DNA of 64,000 bases from Psammoneis japonica (taxonomy: Eukaryota): NCBI GenBank assembly GCA_008632985.1, contig QPGO01000048.1, forward strand, positions 62,001-126,000, read 5' to 3'. The notes under the pieces were generated by a model. It saw nothing but the letters and a program-made list of their open reading frames with translations, did not search any database and was not told the DNA's origin. The stretch's first letter is position 1. Each line of letters opens with the position of its first letter. The translations under genes and the position numbers were made by a program. Positions 11,401 through 45,365 of the stretch are shown here, in pieces.

Positions 11401-14400
11401 TTAGCGCAGCCGTCGGTGGAGACTTCCTCCCTTTTGCATAGGCTCGAACAATACAGCGATAGAGTTGGGCGGCTGCACCAACCGACTCAGGTGGACATCG
11501 GTGGTGGGAGGCCTCATCGTATGAATTCACGACGGAGCAGTGTTCTTTTGTCAGCGTGCTCTGATTTCCGCAACTGAGGCTGAAGCCATGGAGGCAGCGA
11601 TAGGCTTTGCATAGAGTTTGGTCTAAGCGATTCCCCGCCGTTCTTGCACCAAATGGGTATTCTTCAGCCCATACACTTCCCTTACCTCCAGCATCGTCGC
11701 AAGAGCTCCCCCACTCGGAGAGGAATGTTTCGCAGATGCGATTTAGTACCCGTACAACAACCAACGGAAACATAGGGCCATGTTCACTGTTGTGCCAGGA
11801 AAAGGTACTTGGTGTACAGATTGTCTTTTCATCGAGGGAATCGAAAACTAGTGCCACACATTGGACAGCTAGGCACAAAGAGCGAAGCAGAGAACCGTTG
11901 GATTTGCGTGGTCGATGTTCGCTGTCGTCGGAATCAGAACTGTCCGCCCAATCGTTAGCGCTGGCGTCGGAATCGAAAAATTCACTGATGCACATGCAAC
12001 TGTCACTTTCAACACCTCCTCGTTCTCCTATCTCCTCTTTCTTGCCAGATTCTGGAAAGTTTGAGCCAAGAGCAGATCCACAGAGGCTCACAATGAGCGA
12101 GGCAATAGGACATATCATTTTCTCAACGATTGGGCGATCAAACGAACTGATACTTCCTGGAACCGTTGCCGTTCTCGAAACATTTGCCGGATCAGGGTTT
12201 GACCCATATTTCCAAAACCACAATGCTGAGTCGCAAAGTGCGGCAAGTGCAACGGGATTTTTTGGTTCCTTCGTCGAGTTGGCATCGATGGATACAGAGA
12301 AACTGAGAGCGAGAGCTTCGATCAAAAATGACGGCAACATCTCATCACCAACAATGCGCACCAAATTTCTAGAAAGCATCATCGACATTTCAGATGCAAC
12401 AGCCCCGATGTACTCTGCCCGTCCAGCGCAAAGTTTTTGGCGAACAGCTCGTCCGCTTCTATTGTCCCCGTGTGACCTTAGAAGCAGAGGAAAAACCTGC
12501 CGCTGGGAAACCAAAACCCTTGCGAGGCCGACGAAGAACAGGGACTGCATTTGATGATTGTGGTCGACAAGCTCGTCGTCGACTATTACAGAGGAGACGA
12601 AGGATCGTACAGTCAAAAGTACTTGAAAGTCAAGAGGCGACTGATGGATGAAGGAATCATGCATCGACTGGCGGTACCACTCAGCAGAGAATAGCATGGA
12701 GACTTTCATCATAATCACAAAATCATCTGCGGCGAGAAATGCCGTTTTGTCCTCGGTTGAAAGCTGCGAAAATATATCAGAGATTTTTTCAATGAGGAAT
12801 TGACACATGAGACAAAGCACTCTGCCCTTGCCTCTGCCTTGACGCCGGATTGATCTTCCTTTCTCTATTGACATCTCATCGTCGATAATCTCATCGCTCT
12901 CATCGCTAGAATCACTATCGCTGAGCGTGTCATGACCAGGAGAACGACCGATCCTTCCAAAAGTGCGCATGTCCCAGTTATTTAGACCCTGGTATGATAG
13001 AATGCCTTGTTGATCAAACACCATGCGAACGAGACGCGCCATCAATCGTGCAATCGACAGAGATCTTTCTGTCTTGGACTGGAGGCATGCGACCAATATT
13101 GTCAAGATGCTTGGATTGAGCATGTCACGAAATCGGCCCAATTCCAATTTTTCGGTAGGCACCACGTCCCACAGTCTACCCCATCGTAGCTTTCCCTGCG
13201 TAAATCCCTTCGTCATCTCCTCGTCCCTATCTGATCTAAGCAAGTCGTGAGAGCACAACAGGCGAAAATCATTCGCGAGTTCTTCGTATTTTCCGCCCTG
13301 ACCATCGTACTCAGTATCATATCTATCGAACAGCTGTTCGCCTATTTCACTCAATTTCTTAAGATCATTCTCCGAGAAGCAGGCGTCGAAACCTTCATTT
13401 GAACGTGTGCTGGCATCTTCCACGACCTCCAAGAATTGCTGACGGGCTAACGAAACGACAGAAGCTGCTCGAATTTCATCTTGGAAAGCGGATAGAACAG
13501 GAATAGATAGAACTTTCCAATGAATGTCAGTCCGCAGTGGGGACTCTAGGTGCGGTGTACGAACGGTGAGAATAGGGCGTGGTGCCGGAGTTCGGAGGTA
13601 TTCTATGGCACGATCGATATGTTCGAGCCCCAAGGTCTCAGCAGTTCTAGATTCTGACACGTTCTGAGACACCCTGCTCCTCCAAAGAAAGAATCCTGCA
13701 GCTAGCCAATGGCATCTTGTGTGAAGCTCTGTTAGAAGTCTCTTTTGGGACTGAACTCCGGTCTTATTGGACTTCAGGCTCTCCGACTCACGCAACAGGA
13801 CCGATACTGCTGCTGAAATTGCGTTAGCATCATTGTCAAATTCCTGCCCGATAGAGTGGCGCTCGCATCTCTTCAGTCTTAACTCAGCATTAAGAAGATT
13901 CACTGCGAATTGCTCGATACCAACGGCGTGCAGTTCGTCTCCAAACCACGAAGGCATCAGGGCTGGATTGGTCCCGCATCTCTTTCCAAGAAGGTCAACA
14001 CCTGAGATGAAAAGAAGCAACTACGGTTAGTGAAAAGGATACAACAACATGGGACGTCGGGATGGAACTTACTCTCCGACAAACATGATGCCAGAACCAT
14101 TGTGCCACCCGGATCGATGGCGAAAACATCGGCAACATTAAGAGAAACGTGAGTGACATACTTAGCCAACAAGTCTTGGGGCCCTGAATTCTTGCAACTC
14201 CAGCGTTCGACAAAGCTTGTTATCGATGCACAACTAGCACGTTCTCTGGCTTCGTCGCGCCGTCTATGCTCTTGCTTGCTCTCTGAACCACTAATATGGT
14301 ATTGTGTCACATGACTGTTTCTCCGAAACAAGCTACTGAAACTTTGATCAAAACCCTTCCATATTTCATTCTCATTAAGCATTGCTTTGTATGCTGAGTT

Positions 14401-15966: not shown

Positions 15967-17061
15967 GTCGAATGATGATTCGTACTACTAGACCTAAGTA
16001 GACGCTACAAATTTCTTTCCGACTCCTCTCAAACTTTTGCTGCTCTATTCGAAAAACGACATGCCGTACGAGTACGTCTAAAGTGAAAAAGAAAAAGCAC
16101 AGAAGCAAATAGAGCGCAAGGCGGGGCAGACTAAAAACTTCGAAGAGACGCGGAGGATCGGAGACAGGGCGACGACATCATGGCATGGAACACAACACAT
16201 GGCACGCAGCGGGAATCCCACTCCCCCCTCGAATGCTAAAGATGTGCATACAGGTATGAAACATTACTACCGTACCGGTACGACAATACCGCGAAAAGAT
16301 TGAATGTGGTAGAAATCGCCCCCCCCTTGCTTCGCTCGCGCTTTTCCCATTCTCGCGTTCATGTGGGTTGCCCGTCTCCTTCCTAAAGTTTGTCAACTTT
16401 GAAGGCTCGTAAGTAAGGTGTGAGCTGCAGCATGAGCACGCTCTGCTTCCAGAGCTTCCACCGTGTGTGCCACCTGCCAGCGCACCACACTGCTGCAACG
16501 GCGCCACATTTGCTCCACTCCAAAGCCAGCAGCACGTTTCCTGTCACAAATTTTCACCACCAAAAACTGGATTTCTTCCACCAAACTTTGTTCCTGCCAA
16601 GCAGCAACCTCAAACGTGGTGCTCATGACATGCTGTGAGCCCTGGTGCAGCTGTGGGTGGCTCCACAATGTGGTCAAGGAAAAGATGAAATGACTGCACA
16701 CAGTCCTCACCTCAGGTTGTTGACAGTTTCACTTTTTCCTTCTGTCTTCTTCTTTTCTCTTATCTCTCTTCTCTTTTCCATTTTCCTTTGACTCTTTCTC
16801 TTCTTCTGAGCTGTGTTTCCCAGTCAAGTGTGTTCTCTCCTGCTCCAGCATTGCAGAGCACTGCTGCCCTGAGAGCAGCCACCCCAAACAAGCAATCCAG
16901 AGCAGTTGGATGAGTTGGCTGTGGTTGCCCCCTCTGGCGCTCCCCAGCCAGGGGGAAGTGAGAAGAGAAAACTTGCAATTGACAAAAGACAAGAGAAGGG
17001 GCACAAGCTGAGCTTCTTGGTTGAGCACACAACAAACTAGAGTGCCTGGAGTTTAAGAAGA

Positions 17062-17080
17062 AAGAGAGAGAGAGAGAGAG
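17062..17080 (+). repeat. (GA)n microsatellite
   Basis: agagagagagagagagag run. Confidence 0.8.
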
Positions 17081-17499
17081 ACAATGTGCGCAAATGAACT
17101 GCCCTGCAAAACAATCCTGTGAACAAAGCCATCTGTCCCCGCCCACCTCAGATCTTTTGACACAACAGCACTGACCTTGACCGTTTCAGTCACCATCATG
17201 ATGTCAACAACAGCTTCAACCAGATGTGACTGTTGCCCTTGAGAAGCATGTGATCACTTCCTGTTCTTGCACCCAGCAGATGGAAAATGACAATGAGTTA
17301 ATTCCTCACTTGGCTCAAATCAATTTGCACTCCAAACATCAAAAGCAGCTGAAAAGAGCCAGGAGTTTGCGGCTCCACAGGAGGAAATGACCGAGCTCAT
17401 TGCCCAAAAGAACCCAACAAGCTTTCAAATGCCAAGTCACCTGAGCCACACCAAAAGATCAAACTCCAAGTCATTCATCAAGAAATTGTGCAGTCATGC

Positions 17500-20140
17500 A
17501 TGAAAGCCATTTGACTGGCTGCCCCCACAGTTTTGCCATGGCAAACAGGAGCATTGCCACACCTGTCGATGCTGCAGGGGTTGTTCATCACAACTGCCAC
17601 CATAAAAACTCACTCAGGTTTGTCAAGATCTGCAAACTTGGCACTTTTTGTGCAAAGTGCAAGACAGCAAACAGCGCCCCAGATCTGCCCCAACAACTGC
17701 TGACTGCTCATGCTGACAACCAAATGGTGGGAACACAAGCTGCAGTCAGCGCTGATGAGCTGTTCTCTTTCTGGTGCAGCCACCATCAGCACCAGCCTCT
17801 CTGCAACCTTCTGCCACTTGACTGAAAATGGAGGCTGAGCTCAGCAAGATTTTCTGAGCACTTGACTGGCATGTCTTTGTCTCTCCCTTGAAGATCTGCC
17901 TGGGCTCCAAAGAGAAACACTGCATCAAGCTCCAATTGAGGAAAATGGACCCAGAGCACCATGGGTCAGATGCTTCCAAATGCACTGCAATGAGCTGTGA
18001 GGATGCTGGATGCCCAGCCAGCAGCTGATGTGCAGTCAACCTCCAAGAGCTCACTTGCAAGGAGACCAAGAAAAATGCAAAAAACCCACTCAGGACATCA
18101 GTTTGCTCTGCCACCAAGCTCTCCTTGAAATCTGTTGAACAATGACCAAACAAGCTGAGGCACCGCCCATCCAATGCTGGCACCTCATCACAAAAAGAGA
18201 AAGGCAAAAGTCCCTCATGAGGTTGTTTGTGGAAGCCACACTCACAGCAAGAACACACAACAAAGCTGATGCTGCCAACAATGCCATCACCAACACCAAC
18301 AGAAAAGCTTGCTGCTCCTCCAAATTGAAGCAGCAGTCAAAAAAGAAACAGCAGGAGTGACTGGCACTGAAGGAGAGCAGGAAGAGATTGCCAGACTCAA
18401 CCACTGCCATCACTTGTGAACAAATGTGAGTCTGAGCCCAGAGCATGATGTTGAGTGCAATTCCGAGTCAGCAATGGCACTGGCACAGTTCATGTGTGAG
18501 ATGAATGACAGACTCTGTTCAACCAGAAAGGGTGCTTTGTTTGCCCAACAGTGCCTGCTGCATGAAGGCCTGAAAGCATTTGGACAGAAGGGGCACAATG
18601 CCTCAAAGAAGGAGTCGGACCAATCCATGACAGAGTGTGCTTTGCACCAACATCTGTCAAAGACATGACTCTGAGTGAGAGGGTCAAGGCTGTGTGTGCC
18701 TTGATGTTCCTTGCAGAGAAACAAGACAGCTGGGTTAAAGGACAAATGGTCTGCAACAGGAAACCAACCAGAGAGTGGCCAGACAAAGACAAGTCAGCCA
18801 GCCCAATGACATCATTAGAAAAAGAATGTTCATTGCTGCCATTGTTGACACTGAGGAAGGACACGACATTGTGAGTGCTGATGCACCCAACATGTTCATT
18901 CAAACTCAGGTTCCAAAAGTTGAACAAGGAAACAATCGGATCATGATGAAGATTGCAGACACATGGTCCTGGAAAAGGTCAAGAGATTCCTTTGTGTGCG
19001 AGTGATTAGAGTGACACATGGCATGTTGGTTGCAGCACTGCTGTCTGGCAGAAGAAGTTCCGCAAGGACTTGGAAAAGATTGGGTTTGTGTTTGACCCAC
19101 ATGCCCCGTGCATTGCCAATTGTGTTGTCAATGGCAAACAGCACGCAGTGAGGTTTCAGGTGGATGACCTGTTGTTGAGCCACCAGAACCCAAAAGTGAA
19201 TGACAAGTTTTTAAGTTGGCTCAACAGAATGTGTGGGAGCCACAGAAAGGCTGTCATGACTTGAGGCAAGAAGCACGACTGTCCAGGGATGACCCCTGAC
19301 TTCACAGCAAAAAGTGCAAGTGTCAGCAGACATGACCAAGTGCATCAGCAAGACAACCAACCATTTCCCCAAGGCCATTGGAGCACAGATGCTGCCACAA
19401 CACCAGCTGGAGAAAACCTGTTTGACATGGTGGCGCACAAGGTTGCCGAAAGAGAAAGTGCAAACTTTCCACAAGCCACATGTGGGTGGCCAAGGGACTG
19501 TTTGTTTCCAAAAGAGGCTGGATGTGCATCCCACAATTGTTGCATTGTGCACAAGATTCATCAGAGAACCTGCCAACAAGGATTGGGGGAAACTGGTGGT
19601 CCATTGTTTGAAACATGTGAAGTGGGCATGAATGAAGTCACAACTTTCAGTGCAAAAGACCTCCAAGTCATCAAGTGGCACATGGATGCACCCTTTGCAG
19701 TGCACATGGATTTCAAGAGCTGTGCCAGAGCAGCAGTGACCATGGATGATGGAGCAGTGCAAGCTGCTTTGGATTTCAGAAGCTGAGCACCCAAAGCAGC
19801 ACAGAAGCTGAGCCAACAGTGGTCAATGATGCAATGACCATGACATCATGGAGCAAGCTCTTCTTGGAGCACCAAGGCTGTCTAACAACAAGAACACCCC
19901 ATGCCAAGACAACATGAGTGCCATCTTGCTTGAGAAAAAACAAGTGCAGGAGTGCAGGAAGCTTCCAGAGCTCTCAATGTTTGGTGCTTCTTTGTGACCA
20001 GCAATCAATTGAGAAAGGCAACCTGAGGGTGCAATGCTGTCCAACCCATGACATGTTGGGAGACTTCAAGACAAGTTGTTGCAAGGCAAGAAGTTTCAGA
20101 AATTCAAACAAGCTGTCATGGGGCATCAAATGGCAAGTGT
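17500..20140 (+). mobile_element. Degenerate Ty1/copia (CoDi-type) pol remnant: RT and RNase H, with a probable integrase remnant upstream; many stops and frameshifts
   Basis: Relics of conserved motifs: LMFLAEKQDSWVKGQMVCNRKPTREW, SADAPNMFIQT, HGMLVAALL, FDPHAPCIAN, RFQVDDLLLSH, KHDCPGMT, KWHMDAPFAVHMDFKS, QSSTEAE, CQDNMSAILLEK, CCPTHDMLGDF. The left boundary is approximate. Confidence 0.9.
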
Positions 20141-23100
20141 GACAGGCAGAGTTCCTGTCCAGTACATCAGACAAGAGTTCTGATGTGCACAGGTGAAAGA
20201 TCCCTGATTCATGGGTGAGAGATCCCCATGTGATGCCAAGACCTTCAAGCAGCCAAGAGATGAATGGTTCATGACACTTTGATGGGATGCAGAGGGTCTG
20301 CAATGCTTGTCAAGAACAAGCCAGGATGAGCACTGGAACAACTGTGCATGACATGAAGACACAGTGCTGGCCAAAGAATTGTTGGATGGACATTGAAACA
20401 GTCAGGTGGCTGTTGGACTTCACAAGGCCAACAAATCTTTATGTGAGGAAAGGAGAGAAGAACAACTGCAGCAAGAATGGGTGACTGGAGAACAGAGCTC
20501 ATCAAGCAATTCACTGAGAGTGCACTGGCAAAACCTCAGATGAGGGCCATGAGTCCTCTTCAGCAGAGACCACCAATCATTGGAAATTGAAAGGCAACAG
20601 ACATGAGAGATGCCCTGGACTGTGTCCAGCTTGTGACTTGAAGAAACAGAAGATGAGAATGCAATCACTCATTTGACATCATGGGTGGAATCAAACAATG
20701 CACTTTGACCAAAATGGGCTGAACTGTGCAAGAGAAGATTTGAGCTCATTGAGGACCCACATGTGTGTTGCATTGTAAGTTGGTCCCCAGAGATTGATGA
20801 GTGTGTGTCTGCTGCCCAACTGATGATTTCCATGCATGACAATTTTGAAACCTTGAAGAAAACATCAGGGACAAAGCTGGGTTCATGCACCTGACTGAGG
20901 AATGTTGGCAGATTGTTGGAAGTGATGTCCACAGTAACAAGTCAAATTTTGCACCAATTGGAGATTGACACGGCATTTTAGCAAGACATTTGACAAAACA
21001 ACAGTGGCAGGCTCGGGGGTGACAACTTGCAGTTGGCCCTGAGTGGACAAGATGCCAACCATCTGAGAGAACGGTTGAGTGTGAGTTGTCCCCCGTGCAG
21101 CATGGACATGGATGGGAGCTGTGGTCTCCCAAAAAGTGTCATGACAAAGCCAATGGGACATGAGACTGCTTCAGAGTGGTCAGGGATCCAACCAGAGTGA
21201 TTTTTGATGCCAGAAAATTGGCGCCATTTTTCCACCACAATGTTGAGGTTGCAAAGCTGGGTTTGACATGGACATGTCACAGAATGGAATTTTCAGAAAT
21301 GTGTCCAGAGAGAGTCAACAGATGGATTGAGCAACTGCTTGTTGGTTTGTTGGACAATGATGTGAAAGAGATTGTTCATCAAGCCTGCATCAGGCATTTT
21401 GTGGATGCCATGGAAGGACACACCCACAGGTTTCAAGATGATTGATTTCTCAGACAGCACATGTTGTGCCAATCTGTGGTGCAACAGCCAAGACATTGAA
21501 AATGCTGATGGTGCAAGTGGTGTCCCAGACAAGGAAATTGTCCAGCACCTCATCCCAAATCCTCAGAACACCAGTGAGAGCAGCAGGGGTGTGTTGGAGC
21601 ACACCTGACTTTGAGGGGCATCACGTGTGACCCAGAAATGAAGAATTTTCATCTTTTGAGCTCTGAAGTGGCAAGTTGATGCTGCTCTTTGGAGGTTTTT
21701 CTCTTTTCATTGATCACAATCTTACCAACTTTTTGTGCTCACTCTTTAAGCAAATCATCTGGTTTTGCCATCTGGATCATCATCTGGATTGTCAAGAACA
21801 ACAAGTGGCACCTGTCACTGTCCAAACAATCTGTTCAACACATGTGCGATGTTCAATGCAAGACAAACCACAGCTGAAACAGTCACCAGGGCAAGTGCAA
21901 TGATTGGCACAGGAAGCCTTGGGATTCCCTTTGGGCAACATTGACTGCCAATTCAACAACCCAAAAGTGCATCTGACCCAACTGGATGCCACCACCTTGA
22001 AGTTTGCTGACATCATCCAATGCTGCCATGCAACCTCAAAGCCAGACTCTTGAAGCTCTTTGCCAAATGCAGAGGCAGAGCCAACTTTCCAACTCAACAA
22101 TTTGCTGCACTTTCACCTTCCAAAAAAAAACCACTTTGTGTTGCTGTCCATGCCCAATGAGAGCTTGGGCCCTGTCATCATCAAAAAGACACAATGCACA
22201 TCAAAGTGGTGCTCTGCAACCATCTGGATGATGCATTTCAGGCACCAATCTCTGAGCAAGTTTGGTGCCCAAGTGCACAAATGCTGGCTCAAAAACACTC
22301 CCAGCAACTGGCTCAAAAAGCACAAAGTCAGCCTCCCATTGCAGACACAAGTTTCTGAAACATCAACTCAAGACTGACAAAAATCCCTTTTCCATTTTCT
22401 GCCTCACTTTAAAGATGCACAAGCTTCCACTGCTCTGACCCCACCTGATCATCATCTGGGCAGCAGATGACAACAAGCTCCAGCAAGTCACCAAGAGCTG
22501 CCAAAGTGGCTGCACTTTAAGAGCTTGCTGAACCTCAAGAACAAACTGATCTAGATGAGGAAATCCGCCAAGCTGGCTTCTCTTCTCATCTGCCATCAAG
22601 CAGGCTTGCTGCTCCAACATGCTCACCACCAAAAATCTCGTTGAGAAATTGCTCCTGCACCCCTTGCCAACAACGTGCACACAAACTGCCAAGATCTGCA
22701 CATGGCCATCTGGAAAATGCAGTTGCTCTTTTCAGAGCCAAAGTTTGCTCCACAACAAGAAGCCTGTGTTCTTGTTGAGTGCTCCTTCATTGCAACAAAT
22801 GGCTTTTTGCAGCTGACCAAATCATCAAAGCAGAAAACCAGACTCAAGACAAAATTGGGTCTCACAATGAATGGGCTCTTTGCAAGAGGATTTTTGAACA
22901 TGTTCGCGTGCAATTGTTGTGAATTTCTGTGTGTGCATCCACAGCATTGACAAAACTGGCATTTCAGGAAACAACAATGAAGAAACAAATGTGGCTCATT
23001 TCTGTGCACACACACCCTGACACCCAAGCAAGTCAACTGGGCTGAAGCATGCTGACAACTTGATTTGTTCATTTGTCAACTGGTGTGCATTTTGAAATTT

Positions 23101-26100
23101 TGGTTTCCAAAAATGTTTGTTTTCGGCACTGGCATTGTTTGGCACTTGGGGCATGCTCTTGTTCCATGCTGTCATTCCATTGTCTTTGCTCCCTCTGTTC
23201 TTTGAGCTGCCCCTCCCACAGTCTCTTGCAGTCTGTCTCACAGCACATGTTTCTGTTGTTGGCTGTGCTGCCATCAGAGCAATCCCTGGTGGAAGACAGC
23301 AGAGATGTTTTGAGCTTGGCATGTTTTGTGTGGCAAGCATGGCACAATGCTGCTGTTTCTGCTCACCTGTGTGCAATGTTGTGGCAATTTGTTTCTCATC
23401 CTTGGCTGTTTTTGTCAACTTGTTGGATTTTCAAAAAAGAAGAAATTTCAAAAGCACTGGTTTGTTGTTTGCTGCAAGCTCCTTGCTCTTGTGCCACACT
23501 TGTGACCTCTCACCTTTCTCATGGCATTTTTCATTGGCATGTGCAGAGCCCTGGATTTTGTTGGTGCCTTGCAGCAATGTTGTCATTGCTTGTGTGCTGC
23601 TTGGGTGCATCATCCTGTGTTTTTGTGTTGTTTTGTCTGGCGGTGATGTGGCTTTTTTGCCATGGAGCCAAGCCACCAGTTGGCCTGGTGATCATGGCAT
23701 GCATCATTCTGCAAACAGTCATTCTTCTTTGCAACCCTTTTGGCACATTTGTTTTTGAAGTTTGAGGCTGTTCAAATCAGCTTAAATCAATCATTTTGTT
23801 GGTCTTCACCAACAAAGCATTTTTGTTTGTTTGCCAGCTGGGTGTTGAACATTGTTTCACAATCAGATGCAGTGCATTTGTTTTCAAAGAAGATTGATGT
23901 CTCAGTCATTGTGACCTCTGAATCAACTCTTGTTCAGAGCAAAATCTTCACAGCTGTGCTGGTCTGAGCAGTTTGTTTGTTTGCATCTGTGGGACTCACA
24001 ACAACTTTTTTGGCTGTTGCAGCCAGCCATTCTCATCGTGTTTGAATCTTGCAGGCAACAAGAGGTCAAAAGAGGTGGCAGAGTTGGTCATGCAGGGCCA
24101 CAGCCCTGAACACAATGTGCCTGAAAAGAGCCAAAGCAGCAGCCCCTGGAGACGTGGGGGGCCACTGCAGCTGCAGCACCTCCTGCCAATGTTCTTCCAC
24201 CCCAACAAGTGGTTTCCCATGCCAGTGCAGCCATGTGCTGTTGTGACCCCATGTCACCTTGTCCCCAGAGGGTCAGTGCAGACTTGAGCTCCCCAACTTG
24301 AGAGCAAAGCAGCCCCATGATGGGCCCAACCAACCCAACAAGCAACAGCAGACTGAGAGCACTGGTGGTCTCTGATGGACCCCAGGCAACCAACATTTCA
24401 AAAACTGTGGCAGCCCTGGTTGAGTGTTGCAAGGTTGACACTGTGGTGTTGTGACCCCATGTTGCCTTGTCCCCAACAGCAGCAGACTTTGAATTTCCAA
24501 GCACCTGAGTGAAAGGATCCCATGATGGTGACAGTGCCAGCCAACCTGAAAACAGCAAGCTGAGGGCATTGGTGGTTTCTTTGTTTCTGTTTGTTGGAGG
24601 CAACAAAGAGCTGCTGTGATGAGTGGGCAAGCCATCCTCCATTTCATTCTGACCTGACATGCAGCAAGAACAGATCTTGCAGGCAGATTGGCTGGGATGT
24701 GGCTGGGATGCAAGCCACGCAAATTTTTGAGGCTTGTGGCCTTTGCAAAGCTTTCCTGCTGTGAGTTGTGGAGAGCAAGTCTTTGCAGTCAATCTTTTGT
24801 CAATGATGCAGTGGCTGCAATGTGGCATCAAACATCCATGCCAACCTTTGCACAAAAAATGAACCAATGTCAAATGAAATTCCACCACCAAAGCCTTGAT
24901 TGCAACTGCCACTCAATCAGCCCAACCCCCCATCAGCTGAGTGAATGGAGAATGCTCACCCTTGTTCTCTCCAACAAGCAAATTAGTGCCAGCACTTTGA
25001 CAAGCATGGCATCCAAACAACCTTTGCAATCTTCTGCAAGAGAGACAAAAATGGTGCATTTACAGAGCAACAACCAAGAGCTGTGCAGAAAGTGGACACG
25101 ATTTGGTGTTCACTGGCAGAAATCCAATGCCAAAGCCAAAACAGTGCACACCGCACATGCATGGACCCAAACAAAAACACAAAATAACTCACAACCATGT
25201 CAGCCTCAATGACTTGGCACCCACCAAAAATGTTTGCAGCACATTTGTTGTCAATGGATGGCTTGAAAGTGGTGCTCAATGAAGTGCAAATTGACCCTCA
25301 CTGCATCTGGGTTGATGTCAGGATTTGTCAAATTGTGATGTGATGATGATGAGGATGGGTCAGTTGGCTGAGCATTTGTGGCAGCAGGAAGCATGAATGA
25401 CAACAGGGGGATCAAATGATGACATGGCCATTGTGAGGGGCTGCTCAACATTGTGAATTGGGGTCTGGAGTGCAAGCTCACATTGGCAGAAGGACAGGAT
25501 CCAAACTTGCAACTGTTTTGTCTGTTAAAAGAGGATTGGTCCAACCATGTTGTGAGCAGTTGTTGTGAATGTTGGAGAGTGGCCGCAAGCAGGGAAGACA
25601 TGACTCCCTTCAAAAGTTTCTCAAGCTCAATTGATGGTGGGTCATTTGGGTTGCATGGCACATGTGGAGGAAGATGGGGTCACACAGGGGCTCTGACAAC
25701 TCCAAAAATGGAGCTGGTGCTTTGTGGGAAAGTGGCTTCAGTTTGTCAAGAAGTGACACTCCAGGGACATGCTGAGCTGAGTGTTGCTGGGCACACAAGC
25801 ACCAACTCATTTCATTTTTGTGCAGTCTTTGCATGGGTGCACGGGCCTTCTTGGAGTGAAATGGTGAGGTTCACTGAGTTGACTTTTTGTGAGATCTGGG
25901 CTTGTGACCCAGGTGGTGGCCCTGTCAGCGTCACTCAGCCTGAAGGCAAATGCTGCCCAGCAGTCATCATTGGTGATTTGCCAGATGCACAGTGGCATGC
26001 CAAAGGGGTTGATGGTGTGCCCCCACACTGTCCCATTGGACTGGCACCAACAAGCAGCATCACCAAATGTGCAAACAGTTGTTTTTTTCACAATGACTCA

Positions 26101-28264
26101 CAGTGCTTCAATGAGAGCTTCCATCTGCAACATGTTTTTGTGCTTGATGAGAAGATCAATTGATGAGCAGAAATGAAATTTTTACATGTGTGGTTGCACT
26201 CTTGACACGTGCAACACATTTTCAAAACTCAACCAAGGTGGCCACTGTCACTTAAATTCCAAACAATGTTTTGACACTGGCTGTGTTTTGGTCACAAATC
26301 TGGCATTGCAAAAGGCATCATTTTGGTCTGCAGTTGGGTTTTCCAGTGGTTGGGGATTTGCAATGTTTTGTTTTGTGGCCCAGCATTTTGTTTAGAGTTG
26401 ATTCATTTGTTTGGAAGAGCTTCAGCTCAAATGTCCATCGCATGATTTTGTTTTGTTTCTGCTGCATTTTTGTTTCTTTGTTGCATCCTTTGGCACCACA
26501 CAGCTCAGCCACCAACCCACTGTTCACTCAACAATGGTGTGCCCCTCTGTTGCAGTCTCTCCTGTGTCTCTGTTGCATGTCTGACAACAATGAGAAGAGT
26601 CTCCTTTTTCAAAATGCACATCAGATGGGCTGGGTGACCATGCATCACAGCCACTCCTGCAACCTCAGGAACCTCCTTTGGGACCCTTTGCATTTTGTGG
26701 GCTCCTGCTCATGGTGTGGCAGCCAGAATCTAAGTCTCTTTTGCTGCTGCCAGAGGGAGGAAGATGTGTTTGTCATTTGTTGTTGGCACAATGCTGGGCC
26801 GTCAATCTTGCTTCTTTGAGCATGAAGTTGAGCTTTCAAGGCCCACTTTCTGGGGCAAAATTTGAATTTTTTTACACCATGGGCACCCAAAGAGCCAGCA
26901 AGGCCAGCCAACCCCTGCCACTTTTCCTTCACACTTGTGAGAAAGGCTGTGATGCAGTGCAAGCGACAACAAGTTGGAGCAGAGAGGAGCCAATGTGTGC
27001 AGCCAGATGTGCTGCAAACACGAACATGGACAAAAAGAAAGAGCAAAGAGGGTGAGAGGGCTCATGAGAGACTCTTGGCCCAGCCAGGCCCCAGTGCAGC
27101 AATGTGGCTTGTCTCTTTTCTCTTTGTTCCTTCTCATCAACAGGGGCCAAAAGCGCTGAGCCACACCGCAGAGAGGCGCAAGCGCATGCTCTCCACCACC
27201 CTCTCATGCAACAAACAGCAGAGGCAGTGTCAAGAGAGTCATGTCTCATGCACACCACACATGACACAAGCAATGCAACATGCAATGCATCATCATCAAC
27301 AAGTGTCTGTCTCTGTGCACCTTCACAGCACCAAGCACCCCCAAGTGGCGGCCGGAGAGCCTCACAACCCTGGGCTGTGCCGCTGGGGCAAACTGCCCCA
27401 TAAAAATGCAGTGCGAGTTTCTGCCAGCCGTGTGGCATTTCTTTGTTATTTGTGTTGGCAGTCATGAATGTAAAAGTTTCTTCGTTTGCGAGTGCCGTAC
27501 GAGCATGATGTGGGCCCTAAATGTTAGACTGCCGCACCGCATGTGATCGAAAGACATTTTCTCGAAACAGCTGGTGGGGCATCTGCAAGAGACTTCAGGC
27601 ACGCAATGACGCACCGAGAGAGGCTGACGTTTCTTTGTTGGTTGACATCCCCATTAAATGAATCATTTAATAATTTTTCGGAATTTTGTTTAACAATGCA
27701 CTAGAGTCGTTAATTGGTTGTATTGACAGAAGATGAATGGGCAATGTGGGGACTTCTACTTCACTTCCGTGCAACGCAGAAGCCACTTATGCCGCCGTAC
27801 CGTATATACCTGAATGTACGTAAGATGGCGTTCGTTCAAATCAATCACCTTTTACAGTATTTTGATCGACATGCTCACATCCAACGAAACGAAGAACACC
27901 GAATCGGAACTACTTAGCCCTACAACCAAAGAAGTGCTGAAAAAACTTGCGAGATAGAGCACCAAGCAGTGGGCGGGGAAGTGGGATACTATTTTTGAGG
28001 GAAAAGTGAGGGTATTCTACGATAACTAAAAACAACACTACAAATTCAAAAAATAATCAAACAGAAATTCAAAATTGCAGAAGATGAATTCGGCATCTTC
28101 GGATAGGTCAGGAGCAGGTGTGCCGCCAAACTTCTCAGCATTGACGTTCCTCTGGGCGCTGCGTCAGCAACAATTCAGGATTCGTCGGTATCCTCTCGAC
28201 ACTTCTATGGAACAACAAGTTCGAACGCGTCTCTTAACTCGTCTTCTTTTCGGAGGCGGCAACG

Positions 28265-31206: not shown

Positions 31207-32395
31207 TTCGTCTTGGTACCGGAGGGCAAATGCAGCAGAAGTGGTGCCGATGCCGATCCAAGAGATAGATTGTGTAGCCTCTAGAGTAGCGAGCGAGCAT
31301 TTGTACTGAAGCAGTCAGTCAATCAGTGCGGCTTGAGCGTTTTAGAGATCGCTGGACAGACCGTACTAGAAGTACGTAGTTTCTCTTGCCTTCGCGCCCT
31401 ACTGTACGTGCGCGTACGTACGATTGATGTCGCACTGGCGATCAGACCTTCTTCGACGGATCTGTTGCGCTTTCGTGAAGACCTCTCCCACTTCAGATTG
31501 GGCGCGCCGCATGCAGCGCACAGACTGCTCTGGCTCTACTCCAGAGAGCAGAGTCTGTCCACAGTGCCTGTGTGGAGTGGTTTTGAAGCAGTTGCGGTGC
31601 CTGAACCGCTGCAATGGTGATGACGCCATGGTGGAATGACCAACGCCGCGTGCCGTTGCGTTGTGCACTCTGATTGCACTGCACTCCGACCCTTCTTTTG
31701 ATTTGTTTGGCAGAAGCAATGAGGAAAGAAAGGAGAGAGACAAGAAGCTTTGGGATCTTCTGCAGCATCATGTGGTGCTTGGTGAAGGAGCCGACCCAAG
31801 CACGAGGATCTCTCACTTCAATTGCAGGCTCTTGCCAGACAAAGAACTTGTGATTTGCTGCTGGAGTGTGTTGGAACATCTGCGTCATCTGTCGATGCAT
31901 TCGTGGACCCAATGGAGTCTCTCTGGTCATCCTTGTTGGAGGGCATTGTCGATGGAAACAGCTCTTGTGGCACTCACATCTGCAACAAACATGTGTCTTG
32001 GATTCAATGAATTGTCTTTTGAGGCCATGATGAGGCTTTGGAAGTCCTTGTGAGACAGCATTGAAGCCCCAAAACAGGACAAGCTTGAGGATCCTCCTTC
32101 TTCATCCAGCAATGATGGGGTCCAAGAGTTGAGAAAGGACACCGCTTTCTTGTGGCCGCCGTCATCCCAGGAAACAGAAAATTCATTGAAGCACTTGTGT
32201 CCAGAGATGGATGTGGGGAGTCAGGCATCTCATGAGGACACAGAGATGAAGGTTCAAGGCACTCTGAAGTGCGATCCAGAACTTCCTGCTGCGCACTTCT
32301 TGTGGTTCATCAATTGCCTCCACAATGATGAGAGGGTTGGAGCAATCAATGCACTCCACCAGTGCTTTGATTGCACCATGATTCAAGACCGGAAG

Positions 32396-32671
32396 TGACA
32401 GAAATTGAAGGCAAATGGCAAGAATTCAAACAACAACTCCTTGCTGCTGTCTGAACAGCAGATGAGTCTCCGCTCAGAGACCGTTGCAGGAGCCAAAAGA
32501 CGTGCAAGTCGGCACAATCGGGCCACTGTTGTCATTCTTGTGAGCCTTGTGGCTCGAAAGCAAACTGCATCGCGCGCGAACACGCGGAACTAAAGCACAC
32601 AAAACTGTGCGCGGCAAACCAAACAGCGCATGACATTTCGCGCGCACCCAAATCCTGTTCAAATCCTGTCA
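32396..32671 (-). repeat. 3' LTR (276 bp)
   Basis: + strand begins tgacagaaat and ends aaatcctgtca (TGACAG inverted termini). Bases 32396-32514 match 35911-36029. Confidence 0.85.
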
Positions 32672-32680
32672 CTCCCCAGT
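32672..32680 (-). promoter_or_regulatory. Polypurine tract end
   Basis: Minus strand reads ctggggag|tgaca, the typical copia GGGGAG-TG junction. Confidence 0.7.
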
Positions 32681-33224
32681 TTGCTTGAGGAGCCACAGAA
32701 ACAGATTCGACTTTGGATTGACCAAAGAACTTTGGAGTCAAGGCACCAAAAACATGAGGAGACAAGAAAGGATCAAAGTGGGTCATCTTGAGATGAGCTG
32801 CGTCTCCCCAATTGCAGATGTCGTTGTGCTTTTCAAAGCTCAAGGCACACTTGGGATCTTGTGGGATTCCACATCCGCACTTGCAATGGAAGGAGCAAAG
32901 CTTGGTCTGGTTGACAATGTTGAACGGCGGGGCAACATTGCAGGCGGCATGGTGTTTGCACGACTCGGGGAACAGAGCAAGCATGAGTTCAAAGGCACAA
33001 GCGGTGGCCTTGTGTTCCACCAATCCGATTGCAAGCTCAGCTGCATCTCCTGAGAGACTGATCCAATTGGAGAAACGAGTCTCAAGGTGCAAGCCTTCGG
33101 GGATCGGATTGGAGCAAGACATCTTGTGGTGCAAGGCTGCAGACATCTGATTGGGGCAACCAGTCCCATGCTGCAAGGCTTCTGGGATCCAAAAGGACTT
33201 GCCAGTCTTGTGACACGAGTCTTC

Positions 33225-33920
33225 GGGGATCCAATCAGGAGGCCAAGTCTTGAGGTGCGAGACTTGGGGGATCCAATCAGGAGGCCGAGTCTCGTGGCGC
33301 AAGACTTGAGGGATCCAATCCGGAGGCCGAGTCTTGAGGTATGAGACGTGGAGGATCCAATTGGGAGGCCCGGTCTCGAGGCACGAGACGTGGAGAGTCC
33401 AGTTGGGAGGCCTGGTCTCAAGGCACGAGACTTGGGGCATCCGATCAGGAGGCCCAGTTTCGACGTACGAGACTTGAGGCATCCAATCAGGAGGCCCAGT
33501 CTCGAGGTACGACACTTGGGGCATCCAATCAGGAGGCCCAGTCTCGAGGTGCGAGACTTGAGGCATCCAATCAGGGGGCCTGGTCTCGAGGTACGAGACT
33601 TGAGGCATCCAATCAGGAGGCCTGGTCTCGAGGTGCGAGACTTGGGACATCCAATCAGGAGACCTGGTCTCGAGGTACGAGACTTGGGGCATCCAATCAG
33701 GAGGCCCAGTCTCGAGGTACGAGACTTGAGGCATCCAACCAGGAGGCCTGGTCTCGAGGTACGAGACTTGAGGCATCCAATCAGGAGGCCCAGTCTCGAG
33801 GCACGAGACTTGAGGCATCCAATCAGGAGGCCTGGTCTCGAGGTACGAGACTTGAGGCATCCAATCAGGAGGCCTGGTCTCGAGGTGCGAGACTTGGAGC
33901 ATCCGGTCAGGAGGCCTGGT
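33225..33920 (-). repeat. 42-bp coding tandem array, ~16 units (ETRPPDWMPQVSYL)
   Basis: Unit catccaatcaggaggcc(tg/ca)gtctcgaggtacgagacttgagg on the + strand, head to tail with no spacers. Confidence 0.95.
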
Positions 33921-34233
33921 CTCATGGTGCGATGCTTGGAGGATCCGAAGACAACAAAGCTGCTTGGATGTCCTGAACTCCCCATCTGATGAACCGGTTG
34001 AACTGTTGTGAACAGATTCAATGACGGGAAAAGGAGGCCTCGAGACTTGAGGCATCCAATCAGGAGGCCTGGTCTCAAGGTGCGAGACTTGGAGCATCCG
34101 GTCAGGAGGCCTGGTCTCATGGTGCGATGCTTGGAGGATCCGAAGACAACAAAGCTGCTTGGATGTCCTGAACTCCCCATCTGATGAACCAGTTGAACTG
34201 TTGTGAACAGTTTCAATGACGGGAAAAGGAGGC
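33846..34233. repeat. 195-bp tandem duplication (65 aa) within the LTR element
   Basis: 33846-34037 is nearly identical to 34041-34232. Confidence 0.9.
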
Positions 34234-35895
34234 TCCCCATCAGGAGATGCGAGAAGCAAGTTGTCATCTCCATCACTTCCCAGACGAAGACTGTGAAGGG
34301 TGACAGTGGTCAACATGTGGAGGTTGGCAGCATGTGGTTTGCGGGGTGCAAAGACTGCAGCTTTGGAAGCCATGGGTGGAGTGTCCCAACTGGTCTCGAA
34401 GTGCGGGCCTGTGCAAGGGCTGCAATCCTGCACTGGGCCGAGGTTGCTTGCAGGCGGGTTGGTCAAGACATGTGGGGTGCGACTGACACCACTTCTAGGG
34501 GACACCTGAGTGGCGGCACAGTGCAAGGCTGGTGTCAAAATGGCACTGGGTTCACCTGGTTTGGATGGCAAGGGACTCGGCACAGGTGCGGAGGGTGCTG
34601 CGCCAGTGGCCAGAGAGGTCAAGTGGTCCGGACCAAGGCGGCAGTTGCGAAATTCGTCGGGTGTGAGCAACTGGGGTTCATTGGTCACATCATCACCATT
34701 GCAAACTTTGACAAAGTAGAAGCTGATCAAAGCTGCCAGGAGGTTTCTGTGGGTCCATGGCAAAGGCACTGCATTGGCGCCATCTCTGCAAGTGAGGGCG
34801 TCAATTTGGGTGGGTGAGAACGTGAACAACTCCTCGCACGATTCAATCCCATTGATGGACAGGGCAGAATGAAGAGGGCTGTCATCGTCTTGATTGAGCA
34901 CAGTGCCTAGAATGCATTTGAAGCTTTCGGTTTGTTGCTGTCACGTGAGAACCATGACGGAGGACGGTGCAGTAGAAACAAAAGACAGGAACCAATCTAG
35001 AGCGCGATCTTGACTTGGAGTTTTGACTTGGAACTTGGCTTGAAAAAGACTTGACTTGAGCTAGACTTGACTTGAAATCTTGGACCATCTTAAAATCAGA
35101 AGTCGCCGGGTTGTGCTGTCCCGTTCGTTGTCAAGTGCTAAACTTCCCATCCGGTCCGTAGAGTTGTGCCGGCACGTCCGAACCCGCAGCTGGTGGTGCT
35201 TTGGGTTGCTTGCGAGCGGAGCAGCGGGTTGTTAACCCCTGCAGGCAAGCTGACTAGAGGTGGACAAGACCCCCGAACCGTTCTCATTTTATGTCGGTTG
35301 GATTTCCCGATCAGGCTGGCCAGTTGACGCAGGCGTTGGGCGCTGTCGACGAACGAACAAATGCGGGAAAAAACACCCTCACCCCAACGTAGGCTGCAAT
35401 CACGGCTGCTTGCTCTCACAGTCGTCCTCGTGGACCTAGTGGAACTGTAGAGCACCAGCAGTCCGGGGTAGATCAGGTACAATGGACTCGGTGTGCTTGT
35501 AGAGTGGCAGCAAAGCCGCAGTCCAAAGAGTGGGTACAAGTTCTTGGCCGTGAAGATATGTATATATATATGTCTTCAGCGACGAAGATTCTTGAATGTG
35601 TAGGGTTCTTGACCGTTAACCGTTGAATGGGTATACTAAGGGATGAGGATCAAGGATAGACTTGGATATGACCGTTGAATGTATGTCTTCAGCGATGAAA
35701 GGTAGTGTGATCAATCCAGATATCCAGCGGTAAGGAGACTTGACGGTGACGTTAAATTCCTGCCGATGCCTGGTATTGAACGCGCGTAGACTTGCCGATG
35801 TACGTAGAATATATACGGAGGTCCACGCAGAATTGAAAAGGCGTCGTCGGTAAATCAACGACGACGATGGCGGTTGCTCAATGGGTTGACAATGA

Positions 35896-35910
35896 GCAAG
35901 ACTGTTAATC
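35896..35910 (-). promoter_or_regulatory. Putative primer-binding site complementary to the tRNA-Asn(GUU) anticodon arm (half-tRNA priming)
   Basis: + strand gcaaga-ct-GTT-aa-tc directly abuts the 5' LTR. Confidence 0.6.
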
Positions 35911-36029
35911 TGACAGAAATTGAAGGCAAATGGCAAGAATTCAAACAATAACTCCTCACTGCTGTCTAAACAGCAGATGAGTCTCCGCTCAGAGACCGTC
36001 ACAGGAGCCGAAAGATGTGTGAGTCGGCA
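35911..36029 (-). repeat. Truncated 5' LTR (119 bp retained)
   Basis: 109/119 identical to 32396-32514; similarity stops abruptly at 36029. Confidence 0.85.
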
Positions 36030-37454
36030 GTCTCATTGTTCGCTCTTCACTCATCTTTTGGCAACAGGGATCTTTCTTGCAATGCCACAGAGGAGGCTGT
36101 CTGTGTTGCTCAGGCAAGCAGTGACAAAGCATGTGTGGCATGTGCTCTTGGGTGGTTGTGTCACAACAAAGCAAAGCAAGGCACGGGGAGTCAGAGGAGC
36201 TCTTGGAGTGATGTTTGAGTCATGCGGCCAACACAGCAAACTGCGTTCCCTTGCTGGAGGTGTCAACATGGAGCTTGCAAGACACTGTCTCATGCCACCC
36301 TCTCATGATCATCAAGAGCTTTAACAACCCCATGGATTTGAGAGCACAGTTGCTGCAAGGCAATGCTTGGACAGGGCTGGGCTCATCCAAGGCAGGCAGA
36401 AAGCCATTGTGCAACCGTGTGCCACATCTTGCCTTGTCAAAGAGCTCTCCATCAGTGTCTGCAGACCAAACAGGATGCAGTGGATGATCCTGGATAGTGG
36501 GCTCCTTTGGGAGCATTGAAGATGGAAAGGTGATGACAGAATCGTCCCAATCCAGTTTGTCACAAGTGTCACAGCAATTGCTGAAATTGTCAGCATCGTC
36601 CAGTTTGGCCATCTCAACAGAAATCTTGCACCACTCTCTCTGAACTGCAGGACTTGGAACGAATGGAAACATGCATGACAGCAGCAGCAGTGCCAGATGT
36701 GTTCTCAATGGGACAACAATGGAACCCGGCACAGACTGGCATTCCTCTGGTGTGGGGCAGTCATCACAATCCCAAGTGCAAGTCTCACGATGATCAAGAC
36801 TTCAGCATTGATCCCACCCAGCAAAGCCGCGGCAATGCCAATGTCACAAGGGTGACCTCTGTCATGTTAGAGACAATGCTTCAGGAGTGGACTGTTGTCA
36901 GAGTTGTTGAATGCACAAACCCCTTGGCGAAAAAGAAATCAACCAGTCATCTTCTTGCCTCACTCAGTCATTCCCAGTCAACCGATTTGGAAGAAGAGGG
37001 GACACACAACCTTTCTCCAATTCCCATGCTTGTCCATTGCATGAAAACAAGAATGAAATTGAGGTTTGTGTCCCATGTGACAGGTCCATTTCCATCACCA
37101 TTCATCATCCTGATGACACGATTGTGAGGAAAATTCAAGAAACTCACATGGTGGGTGCAGATTTCACTTTTCATTCTAAACCTTTCAGGCATTGACAAAT
37201 GATGCACAAACATTGGCATTGGCCAGACAGAGCTGGTGATTCCAACAGAGCATGTGCAAGCATGTGGTGCTGTGCACTGCAGTCAACAGAGGAAAAGAAT
37301 TAGCCACGCTGAGGAAGTGGTGATGACCATGAGCCCAACAATGGCAAAAGAGGACCAAGACAGTCAACAGAGACAAAGAGAAACAGCAGATGGACTGGAG
37401 AAAGCCACACTGGTTTTGCCCACAGGGACTTGTTGGTGTCATGGACCACAATGT

Positions 37455-37772
37455 GAGGATGCACTTCTTGTAAAAAAAGCACCATTTGAGACGGTGTGGC
37501 AGAACAGCCAGAGCATGAGTTGATCCTTGGCCACCGAAGTGGTCCCCGCAACAAGCGAACCCAATCGGGATTTAGAGACAGGTGGACCAGCTGAGAGATC
37601 CATGCCAGTTTTGCCCATTGGGACTCAGTGGCAACTCAGACCGTAAATCTGAGGATGCAACCCTTGTAAAACAGGCACCATTTGAGATGGTGTGGCAGAA
37701 TGGCCAGAGCACGACTCGATCCTCGGCTGCCAAAGCGGTCCCCGCAAAAGAGCGGACCCAACCAGGATTTGG
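37455..37772. repeat. Diverged ~196-bp tandem duplication
   Basis: gaggatgca..cttgtaaaa..gcaccatttgaga.ggtgtggcagaa occurs at 37455 and 37651. Confidence 0.8.
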
Positions 37773-38903
37773 AGCATGTCCATGCAAGATGGCACCACAT
37801 GGTGTGAACTCAGTCAACATGACAGAGAAGGGTGGGAGGTGCATCCACAAGACAGTGCCAAATGGCATGGTGAAATGGCGCCAATGCACGAGACACTCCC
37901 GACTGCGCAAAAGCAGACCACGCAAGGGATTTTCTGTCAGCTGACAGGAAGGAAGAAAGCCCATTTCAATTTTCATTGTTGGCATCTGCTTGGAGACACC
38001 TTGACAGTTCCATGGTGTCTCCCAACCTGCCAGACAATGAGGGATCCCTTGGGCTGGCCTCATTTCTGGTTTTGCTTGCTCGTCTCATCCATCGTCCATC
38101 CATCATCCGCCCATCATCCTTCCTTCACCCGCTCATTCCTGCTTTCATGCAGTGCTCTTGGTCCAGCCAAGGAGGTCCTCTCATTCTTGGGCTTAGAGTC
38201 TTAGCCACGATTGCGAGATTTTTTGTCTTGCCATCATCTCCGCTCTTTTTGAGCTCAGCGCGTTTTGTGTCTGGTCGTCGCATGGCACATTCTTTGCGCT
38301 CAGGCTTGCAAGATTTTTCATCTTGCCATTGTCCATTCTTTTTTTAATCAGCGGATTTTTAGTCTGGCCATCATGCAACAATTGATTGTCTGGTTGTCAT
38401 CCACAATCCGTGCACTTGCAAGTTGCAAGGTGTCCGTTTCGTTCGTTCTTCTCTCTCTCTCTCTCTAAAAAACAACATGTCAAAACTCAAGCACAGTGGT
38501 TGCTCGTCACTCTGAATGACATCAACAAGCCATCCATTGACACAAACACACAAACAGCAATGTGGGTGAAGAACAAGCATGCAGGAATTTGGCGTGTCGA
38601 TTCAAAACCCGTCCTGTTGTCCTTCCTGCAGATTGTTCAGACGGGAGGAGAGTGTGACTTCGCTCAGGTCACCATAAACAAAATTTTTGTGCCTTCCTCG
38701 CTGAAATTAGTCCTGGTAAAGTTTCCGGCCTTGGTGAATACAAAGTGGACACAGATGACCGGAAGAACCACTGTGCCATTAATGACATTCTCATCTATCT
38801 CAGTCCGTCTTCAGTCAGTCTGTCCGTCATCAATCCTTGTCGTCGTCCCTCCGTCGTCCGGTAGTCCGGAAGGTGGATGCAATACAGTAATGGACGATGG
38901 ACG

Positions 38904-44728: not shown

Positions 44729-45365
44729 TATAGCAGTGCCTTGCGTATTAACACTCTCGGTTGAGGAGCTTCAAGCCAGCTCTTACCGTTGAAGAACAGA
44801 GAGTGGTAGTGTGGCGGAAATGAAAAATTGTGACGATGAAATTGCGAAGTCGTCATCGAACCGCAAAAAATCGGTCGATGACCGTTGAACGTATATAAAC
44901 ATATCCGTATGTATATCGTATAATGTTAAGCTTGCGACCGTTAAAAAACACCGTCCGTCCTGCGCCTCAAGTACCGTATGTATGTATGTATGGTGCAATT
45001 GTACATACTGTAGGGCCCTATCCTTTTTGCGCCAAATCCACCTCGCGACTCGCAACAACCACCGACCACCGTTCCTTTTCGTTTCATTTATTCGAGTCGT
45101 CGTCCTCCACTCTCTCTCTATCTACTCTACCGGTAGCAATAGAGGAGGTACAACAAGTCGACTGGCACTCAAGCTTGTCGTGTTTGAATCGTCGACTCAA
45201 CTGCTTCTTCACTCAGGATCATCAGTAACTTCCTAAATCTACGCGTTTACCATTCGCATCATCATCCGTTTGCTCATCGCTCATCGGTATTTCTGGCTGC
45301 AGCAGTGGCAAGTTAGAGTTACGCAGCGATAGGCGACAAATAACCTACTTTCTTTACTGGTCGTC

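Follow-up and report, generated by a model that had tools for sequence, protein, structure and literature searches.

What turned the conserved tyrosines of a retrotransposon into cysteine and histidine? The question is raised by a decayed Ty1/copia-type element in a 64,000-nt stretch of Psammoneis japonica DNA (contig QPGO01000048.1, positions 62,001 to 126,000; hereafter the window, with coordinates counted from its first letter). A sequence-only reading, made without database searches, had noticed at 18420–20100 that Tyr residues of the reverse transcriptase (RT) and ribonuclease H (RNase H) were systematically replaced with Cys or His, and had proposed a change from TA to TG or CA, independent of CpG, that destroys the proteins of transposable elements. 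This relic stretch sits within a block of ~11 kb (block 1, 16415–27400, to which no strand is assigned) that is nearly without TpA and CpG in dinucleotide counts. We consider it highly probable that the Tyr to Cys/His replacement is the protein-level footprint of an in-place transition process turning TpA into TpG or CpA, with CpG decay alongside.

Comparison with intact relatives supports the assignment of the relic as a decayed Ty1/copia-type RT followed by RNase H. When 121 polyproteins with the RVT_2 domain were compared with the window by tblastn, all 532 matches fell within 18303–20177 on the plus strand, slightly wider than the region noted before, with sum E-values down to 3e-88. This region corresponds to the last ~600 amino acids of a polyprotein of ~1700. 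A profile of 592 positions, built from the RT/RNase H regions of 121 intact PF07727 (RVT_2) polyproteins, matched 18396–20129 over three plus-strand frames in consecutive pieces of 42, 68, 40, 46, 157, and 54 bits, the best of which (157 bits) had an E-value of 1e-49. RNase H follows RT directly, profile positions 472–585 matching 19774–20112 (54 bits), and relative P0087 is described by its source as 'Ty1/Copia family ribonuclease HI'. The alignment covers 565 positions with 11 frame switches and 3 in-frame stops, and the protein identity with intact relatives is ~35–40%. The copia label of the sequence-only reading is supported by the profile and tblastn matches; the relic may belong to the CoDi lineages of diatom copia elements, a label used in that reading.

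With the longest frame (19265–19783, 173 amino acids) as the single query, a search yielded 15 weak matches, all with E-values of 1e-10 or higher. Among these is P0032 (722 amino acids, sub-threshold for RVT_2), an intact-looking RT/RNase H fragment, which as a query for longer proteins returned 464 hits below 1e-30. Among the 120 matches listed for it, the polyproteins were 1268–2068 amino acids long, and PF07727 was present in every one. A Pfam search found RVT_2 in none of the 142 frame pieces of block 1 at E ≤ 0.01 and gave five unrelated sub-threshold matches, because the pieces are short and decayed rather than because the domain is absent. Outside 18303–20177, the 121 polyproteins had no tblastn match to gag, protease, or integrase in the window, and an N-terminal profile (gag to integrase) of 45 relatives had no match at E ≤ 1 when all six frames of the entire window were searched. 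No long terminal repeats flanking the relic were detected by a direct-repeat search, relaxed blastn, or a transition-blind purine/pyrimidine coding. It appears from these searches that only the RT/RNase H third of the polyprotein survives in the window.

The relic was compared column by column with the 121 intact relatives. At the 17 profile columns where Tyr is the majority residue, the window has Cys (TGY) in nine, His (CAY) in four, another residue in four, and Tyr in none; the 13 former Tyr codons lie at 18456–20037 on the plus strand. All nine motifs listed by the sequence-only reading are present with a Cys or His codon at the matching profile column: QQC (TGC at 18552; Tyr in 79% of the relatives), MVCNR (TGC at 18752; 69%), LCV (TGT at 18993; 98%), THGML (CAT at 19017; 100%), DPHAPC (CAT at 19100; 100%), HDCPG (TGT at 19280; 92%), KWHMD (CAC at 19679; 64%, with His in 9%), CQDN (TGT at 19879; 94%), and QCCPT (TGC at 20035; 87%, with His in 10%). 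Additional replacements beyond these are Cys at 18456, 19232, and 19341 and His at 18960. The remaining four columns have Gln (CAG at 19049), Thr (19613), Ala (19903), and Leu (19987), the last in a poorly aligned column.

The loss of Tyr is highly non-random. In well-aligned columns that are at least 90% conserved, Tyr was kept in 0 of 9, whereas non-Tyr residues were kept in 106 of 151 (Fisher p = 3.5e-5), including Phe (10/11), Trp (5/5), Met (5/5), and Glu (8/8). The replacing residue was Cys or His in eight of the nine substituted Tyr columns, compared with 4 of 45 non-Tyr columns (p = 4e-6). Other residues were thus not lost as often, with ~70% of the strongly conserved non-Tyr columns kept, and 17 of the 45 lost ones are single TA-type or CG-type steps. 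Over the 565 aligned codons, Tyr is absent (2.5–4.5% in relatives), Cys accounts for 4.8% (0.5–2.0%), and His for 4.4% (1.4–4.3%). Intact relatives do not carry Cys or His at the Tyr columns. When 135 database proteins were ranked by their Cys/His share at 15 Tyr columns, the full-length proteins among the best 15 had Cys or His in no more than 2 of 15 columns, one fragment of 561 amino acids (P0023) had them in 3 of 12 Tyr columns, and none of the 15 was near Tyr-free. Because the relatives carry TAY where the window carries TGY or CAY, the change ran from TA to TG or CA and CpG decay is no explanation for it, as the sequence-only reading had proposed.

The two kinds of step are also seen beyond Tyr. 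Substitutions were found at 54 strongly conserved columns. A single step suffices for 38 of them, namely, 14 TA-type changes, 11 CG-type changes (25 of the 38 together), 5 further transitions, and 8 transversions; the other 16 require several steps. The TA-type steps in the relic comprise Tyr to Cys/His, Leu to Pro/Ser, Thr to Ala, and Asn to Asp, and the CG-type steps comprise Arg to Gln/His/stop, Gly to Arg, Thr to Met, Ala to Val/Thr, Val to Ile, and Asp to Asn. By the genetic code, a change from TA to TG or CA makes TGY or CAY out of TAY, NTG or NCA out of NTA, and GNN out of a next ANN codon; its missense targets are every Tyr codon and many codons for Ile, Leu, Val, Thr, Asn, and Lys. 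The same change converts TAA and TAG to TGA, TGG, CAA, or CAG and makes no stop from a sense codon, whereas CGA to TGA, a CpG step, does. Proteins would therefore be disabled by missense and not by truncation.

The composition of block 1 shows the same change at the DNA level. Its 10,986 nt contain 30 TA and 62 CG. Per kb, TA falls to 2.7 from 38.0 in the rest of the window (a depletion of ~14-fold) and CG to 5.6 from 58.2 (more than 10-fold), whereas TG rises to 112.2 from a background of 68.4 and CA to 117.2 from 70.7. The sum of the four pyrimidine–purine (YpR) dinucleotides is conserved (237.7 per kb in block 1 and 235.2 in the background): TA plus CG drops from 96.1 to 8.4 per kb while TG plus CA rises from 139.1 to 229.3. 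The gain of TG/CA thus equals the loss of TA/CG, which is expected if transitions within YpR dinucleotides made the pattern. In per-kb profiles of 17–27 kb, the observed/expected ratios are 0.01–0.07 for TA, 0.02–0.14 for CG, 1.67–2.16 for TG, and 1.50–2.46 for CA; outside all three depleted blocks of the window (blocks 2 and 3 are described below), TA is 0.39–0.71 and CG is 0.77–1.20. Both borders are sharp. TA is dense up to 16414 and next occurs at 16761, and there is no TA between 26873 and 27401. At both ends (16415–16615 and 27150–27400), the TA-free zone reaches beyond the CpG-poor zone by ~120–250 nt, and in these margins the CpG density is about half of normal. TGA makes up 588 of the 636 stop triplets counted over all six frames of block 1, and since it is nearly the sole stop left, long overlapping spurious open frames occur in all six. 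Besides the retroelement relic, the block contains sequence present in many copies; the host genes on either side are untouched. The 49 CpGs that survive at 16540–27150 are preceded by T in 15% of cases (33% in the background), followed by A in 18% (31%), and enriched for G/C flanks.

The pattern probably arose through changes of A to G at TpA on either strand of the integrated DNA, giving TpG or CpA, while ordinary CpG decay to TpG/CpA acted on the same block as a second process. The first has come near completion in a silenced, multi-copy, transposon-derived block, with CpG decay alongside. Its chemistry is presumably enzymatic deamination of adenine in a T-A context, and the loss of CpG is probably due to cytosine methylation. 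The TpA process may serve to defend the genome, with DNA that is silenced or repeated as its target. We can only infer its enzyme, its trigger, and its present-day activity.

Two processes would not be needed if one enzyme system, for example, a deaminase acting on both C and A, attacked CpG and TpA alike. The two dinucleotides have fallen by more than 10-fold in block 1, within nearly the same borders, and both end as TG/CA, and ADAT2 of amphioxus and Trypanosoma acts on A and C according to work cited in a preprint on the alga Bigelowiella natans (bioRxiv 10.64898/2026.01.13.699255). However, the two losses come apart elsewhere in the window. Block 2 (31540–34900, no strand assigned) has 3.3 TA and 37.2 CG per kb, with TpA nearly gone and CpG largely kept; eight of its 11 TAs lie inside a 42-nt tandem array. 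Block 3 (35970–38650, no strand assigned) has 5.2 TA and 22.0 CG per kb, with TpA nearly gone and CpG reduced. Low TA combined with much CpG, in these two blocks as in the block 1 margins, shows that the TpA loss does not require the CpG loss and that it is either the faster of the two or the further-reaching. In the hypermutable regions of B. natans, moreover, 230 of 231 mutations are A to G or T to C, all at TpA, according to the text of the preprint (bioRxiv 10.64898/2026.01.13.699255). We therefore regard a single enzyme for both dinucleotides as unlikely.

Blocks 2 and 3 differ from block 1 in content. Block 2 contains an open frame of 802 amino acids on the minus strand (32535–34940), which belongs to no assigned family: no Pfam family was found, it has no similarity to the copia relatives, and a protein atlas gave unnamed clusters only. 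A 14-residue repeat occurs ~20 times in this frame, with one position switching among Tyr, His, Cys, and Arg, and outside the repeat the frame is Tyr-free except for one Tyr near the N-terminus. Block 2 looks younger than block 1, and its frame is still open because TpA steps make no new stops. Block 3 begins with an open frame on the plus strand (35970–36215) that matches the ANAPC5 domain (PF12862, E = 1.5e-10, 41.4 bits where the cut-off is 23). Possibly, this frame derives from a host gene that was copied and hypermutated, and the TpA process would then not be limited to transposons. The plus strand of block 3 is otherwise fragmented after the ANAPC5 frame. Between the two blocks lies a spacer of ~1 kb (35000–35970) of normal, TA/CG-rich composition with a short (TA)n run. 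The depleted blocks thus coincide with two divergent gene-like bodies, the 802-amino-acid frame (minus) and the ANAPC5-like frame (plus).

If the element had instead been edited as RNA by an ADAR-like enzyme before reverse transcription, the mutations would have arrived with the copy. Such an origin would fit a retroelement, which is part of the affected sequence, and the preference of ADAR for U before the edited A, given in the Discussion of the same preprint (bioRxiv 10.64898/2026.01.13.699255). It would not fit the presence of both products on the coding strand of the relic, namely, TG in the nine Cys codons and CA in the four His codons, which are near equal over the RT region as a whole (206 TG and 226 CA). 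Nor would it account for those parts of the blocks, the ANAPC5-like frame among them, that bear no mark of a retroelement.

Local duplicates in the window bear on the timing. A 119-nt segment at 32396–32514 (plus strand) has a second copy at 35911–36029 (92% identical). All seven differences between the copies are exchanges among TA, CG, TG, and CA, and at three of them one copy has TG where the other has CA, which fits the independent resolution of one ancestral dinucleotide. Eight of the ten differences in a second local duplicate (37477/37673) are also YpR exchanges. The 42-nt array in block 2 has 17 units (33205–33918, minus strand) and a site that alternates among TA, TG, CA, and CG. This first site is TA in eight units, TG in four, CA in four, and CG in one, and in the 802-amino-acid frame it encodes Tyr, His, Cys, or Arg in otherwise identical repeats; the second site is TG in eight, CA in five, CG in one, and TA in none. 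Since TA, TG, and CA are alternative states of one site in both the duplicates and the array, the DNA was mutated in place and on both strands, after integration.

Copies elsewhere in the genome have the same property. Between the window and the contigs of sequencing run X1, the sole public run containing block 1, there are 285 transitions and 119 transversions, and five adjacent TG/CA double changes, that is, TG and CA at the same place, were found among 40 rows of 406. The summed depth of these contigs over block 1 reaches 945, compared with ~58 in the flanks (up to 16×), and most contigs are below 95% identity; block 1 therefore consists of multi-copy families. A weak direct repeat within the block (24234–24373 and 24442–24580; 69% identical, or 86% in purine/pyrimidine code) falls where this depth peaks. 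With changes in place in the array, in both duplicates, and in these copies, we consider an origin by RNA editing very unlikely.

Much the same evidence bears on an element that was already poor in TA and CG on entry, either through selection against UpA/CpG on RNA or through the composition of a donor. A joint suppression of UpA and CpG is reported for RNA viruses (PMC3829696). However, selection would not replace all 17 conserved Tyr residues, some of which are found in 98–100% of the relatives, and the relic is a broken pseudogene in a window where TA, TG, and CA alternate between duplicated copies. The observed/expected ratios for TA in block 1 are also far below any known selective suppression, and we find this origin hardly credible. 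A sequencing or assembly artefact is equally improbable: systematic transition miscalls at modified motifs are a feature of nanopore data, and run X1 may be the source of the window and is thus not an independent confirmation, but its contigs reproduce parts of block 1 with 0–15 differences, the identical-context sites of the array read TA, TG, or CA as a systematic long-read miscall at heavily modified bases would not, and the relic carries real indels and transversions.

In-place mutation of TpA is thus the reading that we prefer, and the few TAs that remain suggest a flanking-base effect. Of the 30 TAs left in block 1, 27 are preceded by T, followed by A, or both, compared with 620 of 1655 (37%) in the background (p = 3e-9), and in block 3 this is the case for 13 of 14. 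Only about half of the TG/CA sites in block 1 have such flanks, so that random back-mutation would not yield the bias among survivors. Most simply, this would mean that the TpA process acts poorly on TTA and TAA.

Several points weigh against this account. In block 2 outside the array, only one of three surviving TAs is in a TTA/TAA context, and the surviving TTA and TAA sites could be newly made and not spared. Among the strongly conserved replacements in the relic, 29 of 54 are neither TA-type nor CG-type, which means that the relic is old and that part of its decay is unrelated to the TpA process. The ancestral states are read from relatives that share only ~35–40% protein identity with the relic. 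A search for related loci in metagenomes with an 84-amino-acid RT frame as the query found nine, all with ordinary TA (observed/expected 0.41–0.89), so that no second hypermutated example outside this organism appeared among them; the closest of these loci to the relic is 59% identical or less. The loss of Tyr is real, but, given the 11 frame switches, the 3 stops, and the 29 other-type replacements, the TpA process was not the sole cause of the death of the relic.

A process of this kind is already in print for one unrelated alga. In mutation-accumulation lines of B. natans, A to G and T to C hypermutation occurs only at TpA (Mettrop et al. 2026, bioRxiv 10.64898/2026.01.13.699255), and, as reported there, its rate is ~6e-7 per site per generation in an integrated giant-virus region and a virophage region, the genome has 124 clusters that are poor in TpA and rich in CpA plus TpG, the TpA-poor coding sequences are enriched for reverse-transcriptase and DDE domains, and an ADAT2-like adenine deaminase is proposed as the agent. 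The window resembles B. natans in its TpA target, its TpG and CpA products, the action on both strands, and the delimited regions. It differs in its host, a diatom (stramenopile) and not a chlorarachniophyte (rhizarian), in its target, a retrotransposon relic and not a giant-virus or virophage insert, and in its extent, because the ratio for TA is 0.01–0.07, compared with the 0.45 given for a region of nucleocytoplasmic large DNA virus origin in B. natans. CpG is lost too in the window, whereas 'CpG' does not occur in the main text of the preprint. Similarly, the sparing of TTA and TAA has no counterpart there, as 'flanking', 'trinucleotide', and 'context' are absent from that main text, although its supplements may hold motif data. 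In B. natans, new mutations have been measured; the diatom process is known here from sequence alone.

In fungi, repeat-induced point mutation (RIP) acts chiefly on CpA, where C becomes T, which raises TpA and lowers GC. It resembles the process considered here in making dinucleotide-directed transitions in place that disable genes in repeated or foreign DNA, but it creates stop codons, whereas the diatom TpA process creates none by the genetic code. Fungal RIP was rejected for block 1 because TpA is depleted there and not enriched. The strong C to T mutation caused by RIP is noted in the Discussion of the B. natans preprint (bioRxiv 10.64898/2026.01.13.699255). Methylation-driven CpG decay in transposable elements is similar in its change of CG to TG/CA and in the Arg to Gln/His/stop replacements of the relic; unlike the TpA process, however, it leaves Tyr codons and TpA untouched, and it explains 11 of the 54 conserved replacements. 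Full-text searches of the literature turned up no account, for diatoms, of TpA hypermutation or of transposons devoid of TA. What is new is the occurrence in a diatom, the near-saturation, the co-occurring but separable loss of CpG, the exception of TTA and TAA, and the lack of stop creation.

These findings would place a process described so far in one organism in a second, distantly related host lineage, which raises the question of an ancient origin. They also provide two cheap markers for algal genomes, TA-less blocks with doubled TG/CA and Tyr-free, Cys/His-rich transposon frames, together with a first hint of a flanking-base preference, which constrains the enzyme. Hypermutated DNA evades domain annotation, as the RVT_2 search of block 1 illustrates. 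The responsible enzyme, if it is a DNA adenine deaminase specific for T-A, would be of interest for base editing.

More tentatively, diatoms may possess a regulated defence that edits adenine in DNA, directed by chromatin or repeats, with a recognition of approximately V-T-A-B, so that TTA and TAA escape; it would act to saturation beside, but independently of, CpG methylation and would also hit duplicated host-gene sequence. This is a real possibility, although not one that we would yet favour. If it is true, such a system, being of the kind reported for B. natans, would be ancient and shared widely across the SAR supergroup (stramenopiles, alveolates, and Rhizaria). The hits on the ANAPC5-like frame and the 119-nt duplicate would then mean that it is repeat-triggered, like RIP, and not specific for transposons. 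It would also leave behind long, open, Tyr-free frames that might be called as genes.

The diatom label given by the sequence-only reading is borne out by the genes around the blocks, which encode CNNM, a DEAD-box helicase, a protein kinase, PAP-fibrillin, ABC1, eIF3L, and SRP54. The SRP54 frame is 81–86% identical to its best database matches, and its matches with a named organism are all from diatoms: Ditylum brightwellii (83%), Conticribra weissflogii (75%), and Thalassiosira pseudonana (74%). For one long flanking frame, the sole named relative is a Bacillariaceae genome from a metagenome. The eIF3L frame gave no taxonomic signal in the protein atlas. By these protein similarities, the host is evidently a diatom; since all matches stay well short of 100% identity, it is neither a species with proteins in the database nor B. 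natans.

Contigs of another run, X2, cover the flanking genes and skip short intron-like stretches; none lies in block 1, which has no bearing on expression. At 13957–14070, one X2 contig joins 13999 to 14071 and omits 71 nt, so that two minus-strand frames of 1264 and 675 amino acids look like two exons of one gene of ~1940 amino acids. Relatives P0008 and P0009 are of matching length. A minus-strand frame of 579 amino acids that ends in a villin headpiece domain contains a long and degenerate tandem repeat (43034–44800, period ~63–66 nt, strong AT skew of −0.53). Near the end of the window, an inverted repeat with arms of ~290 nt at 60048–60339 and 60804–61096 (84% identical, ~465 nt apart) has a direct partial copy at 59862–60000. 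The composition there is normal, and the repeat (60048–61096) is possibly a small DNA transposon.

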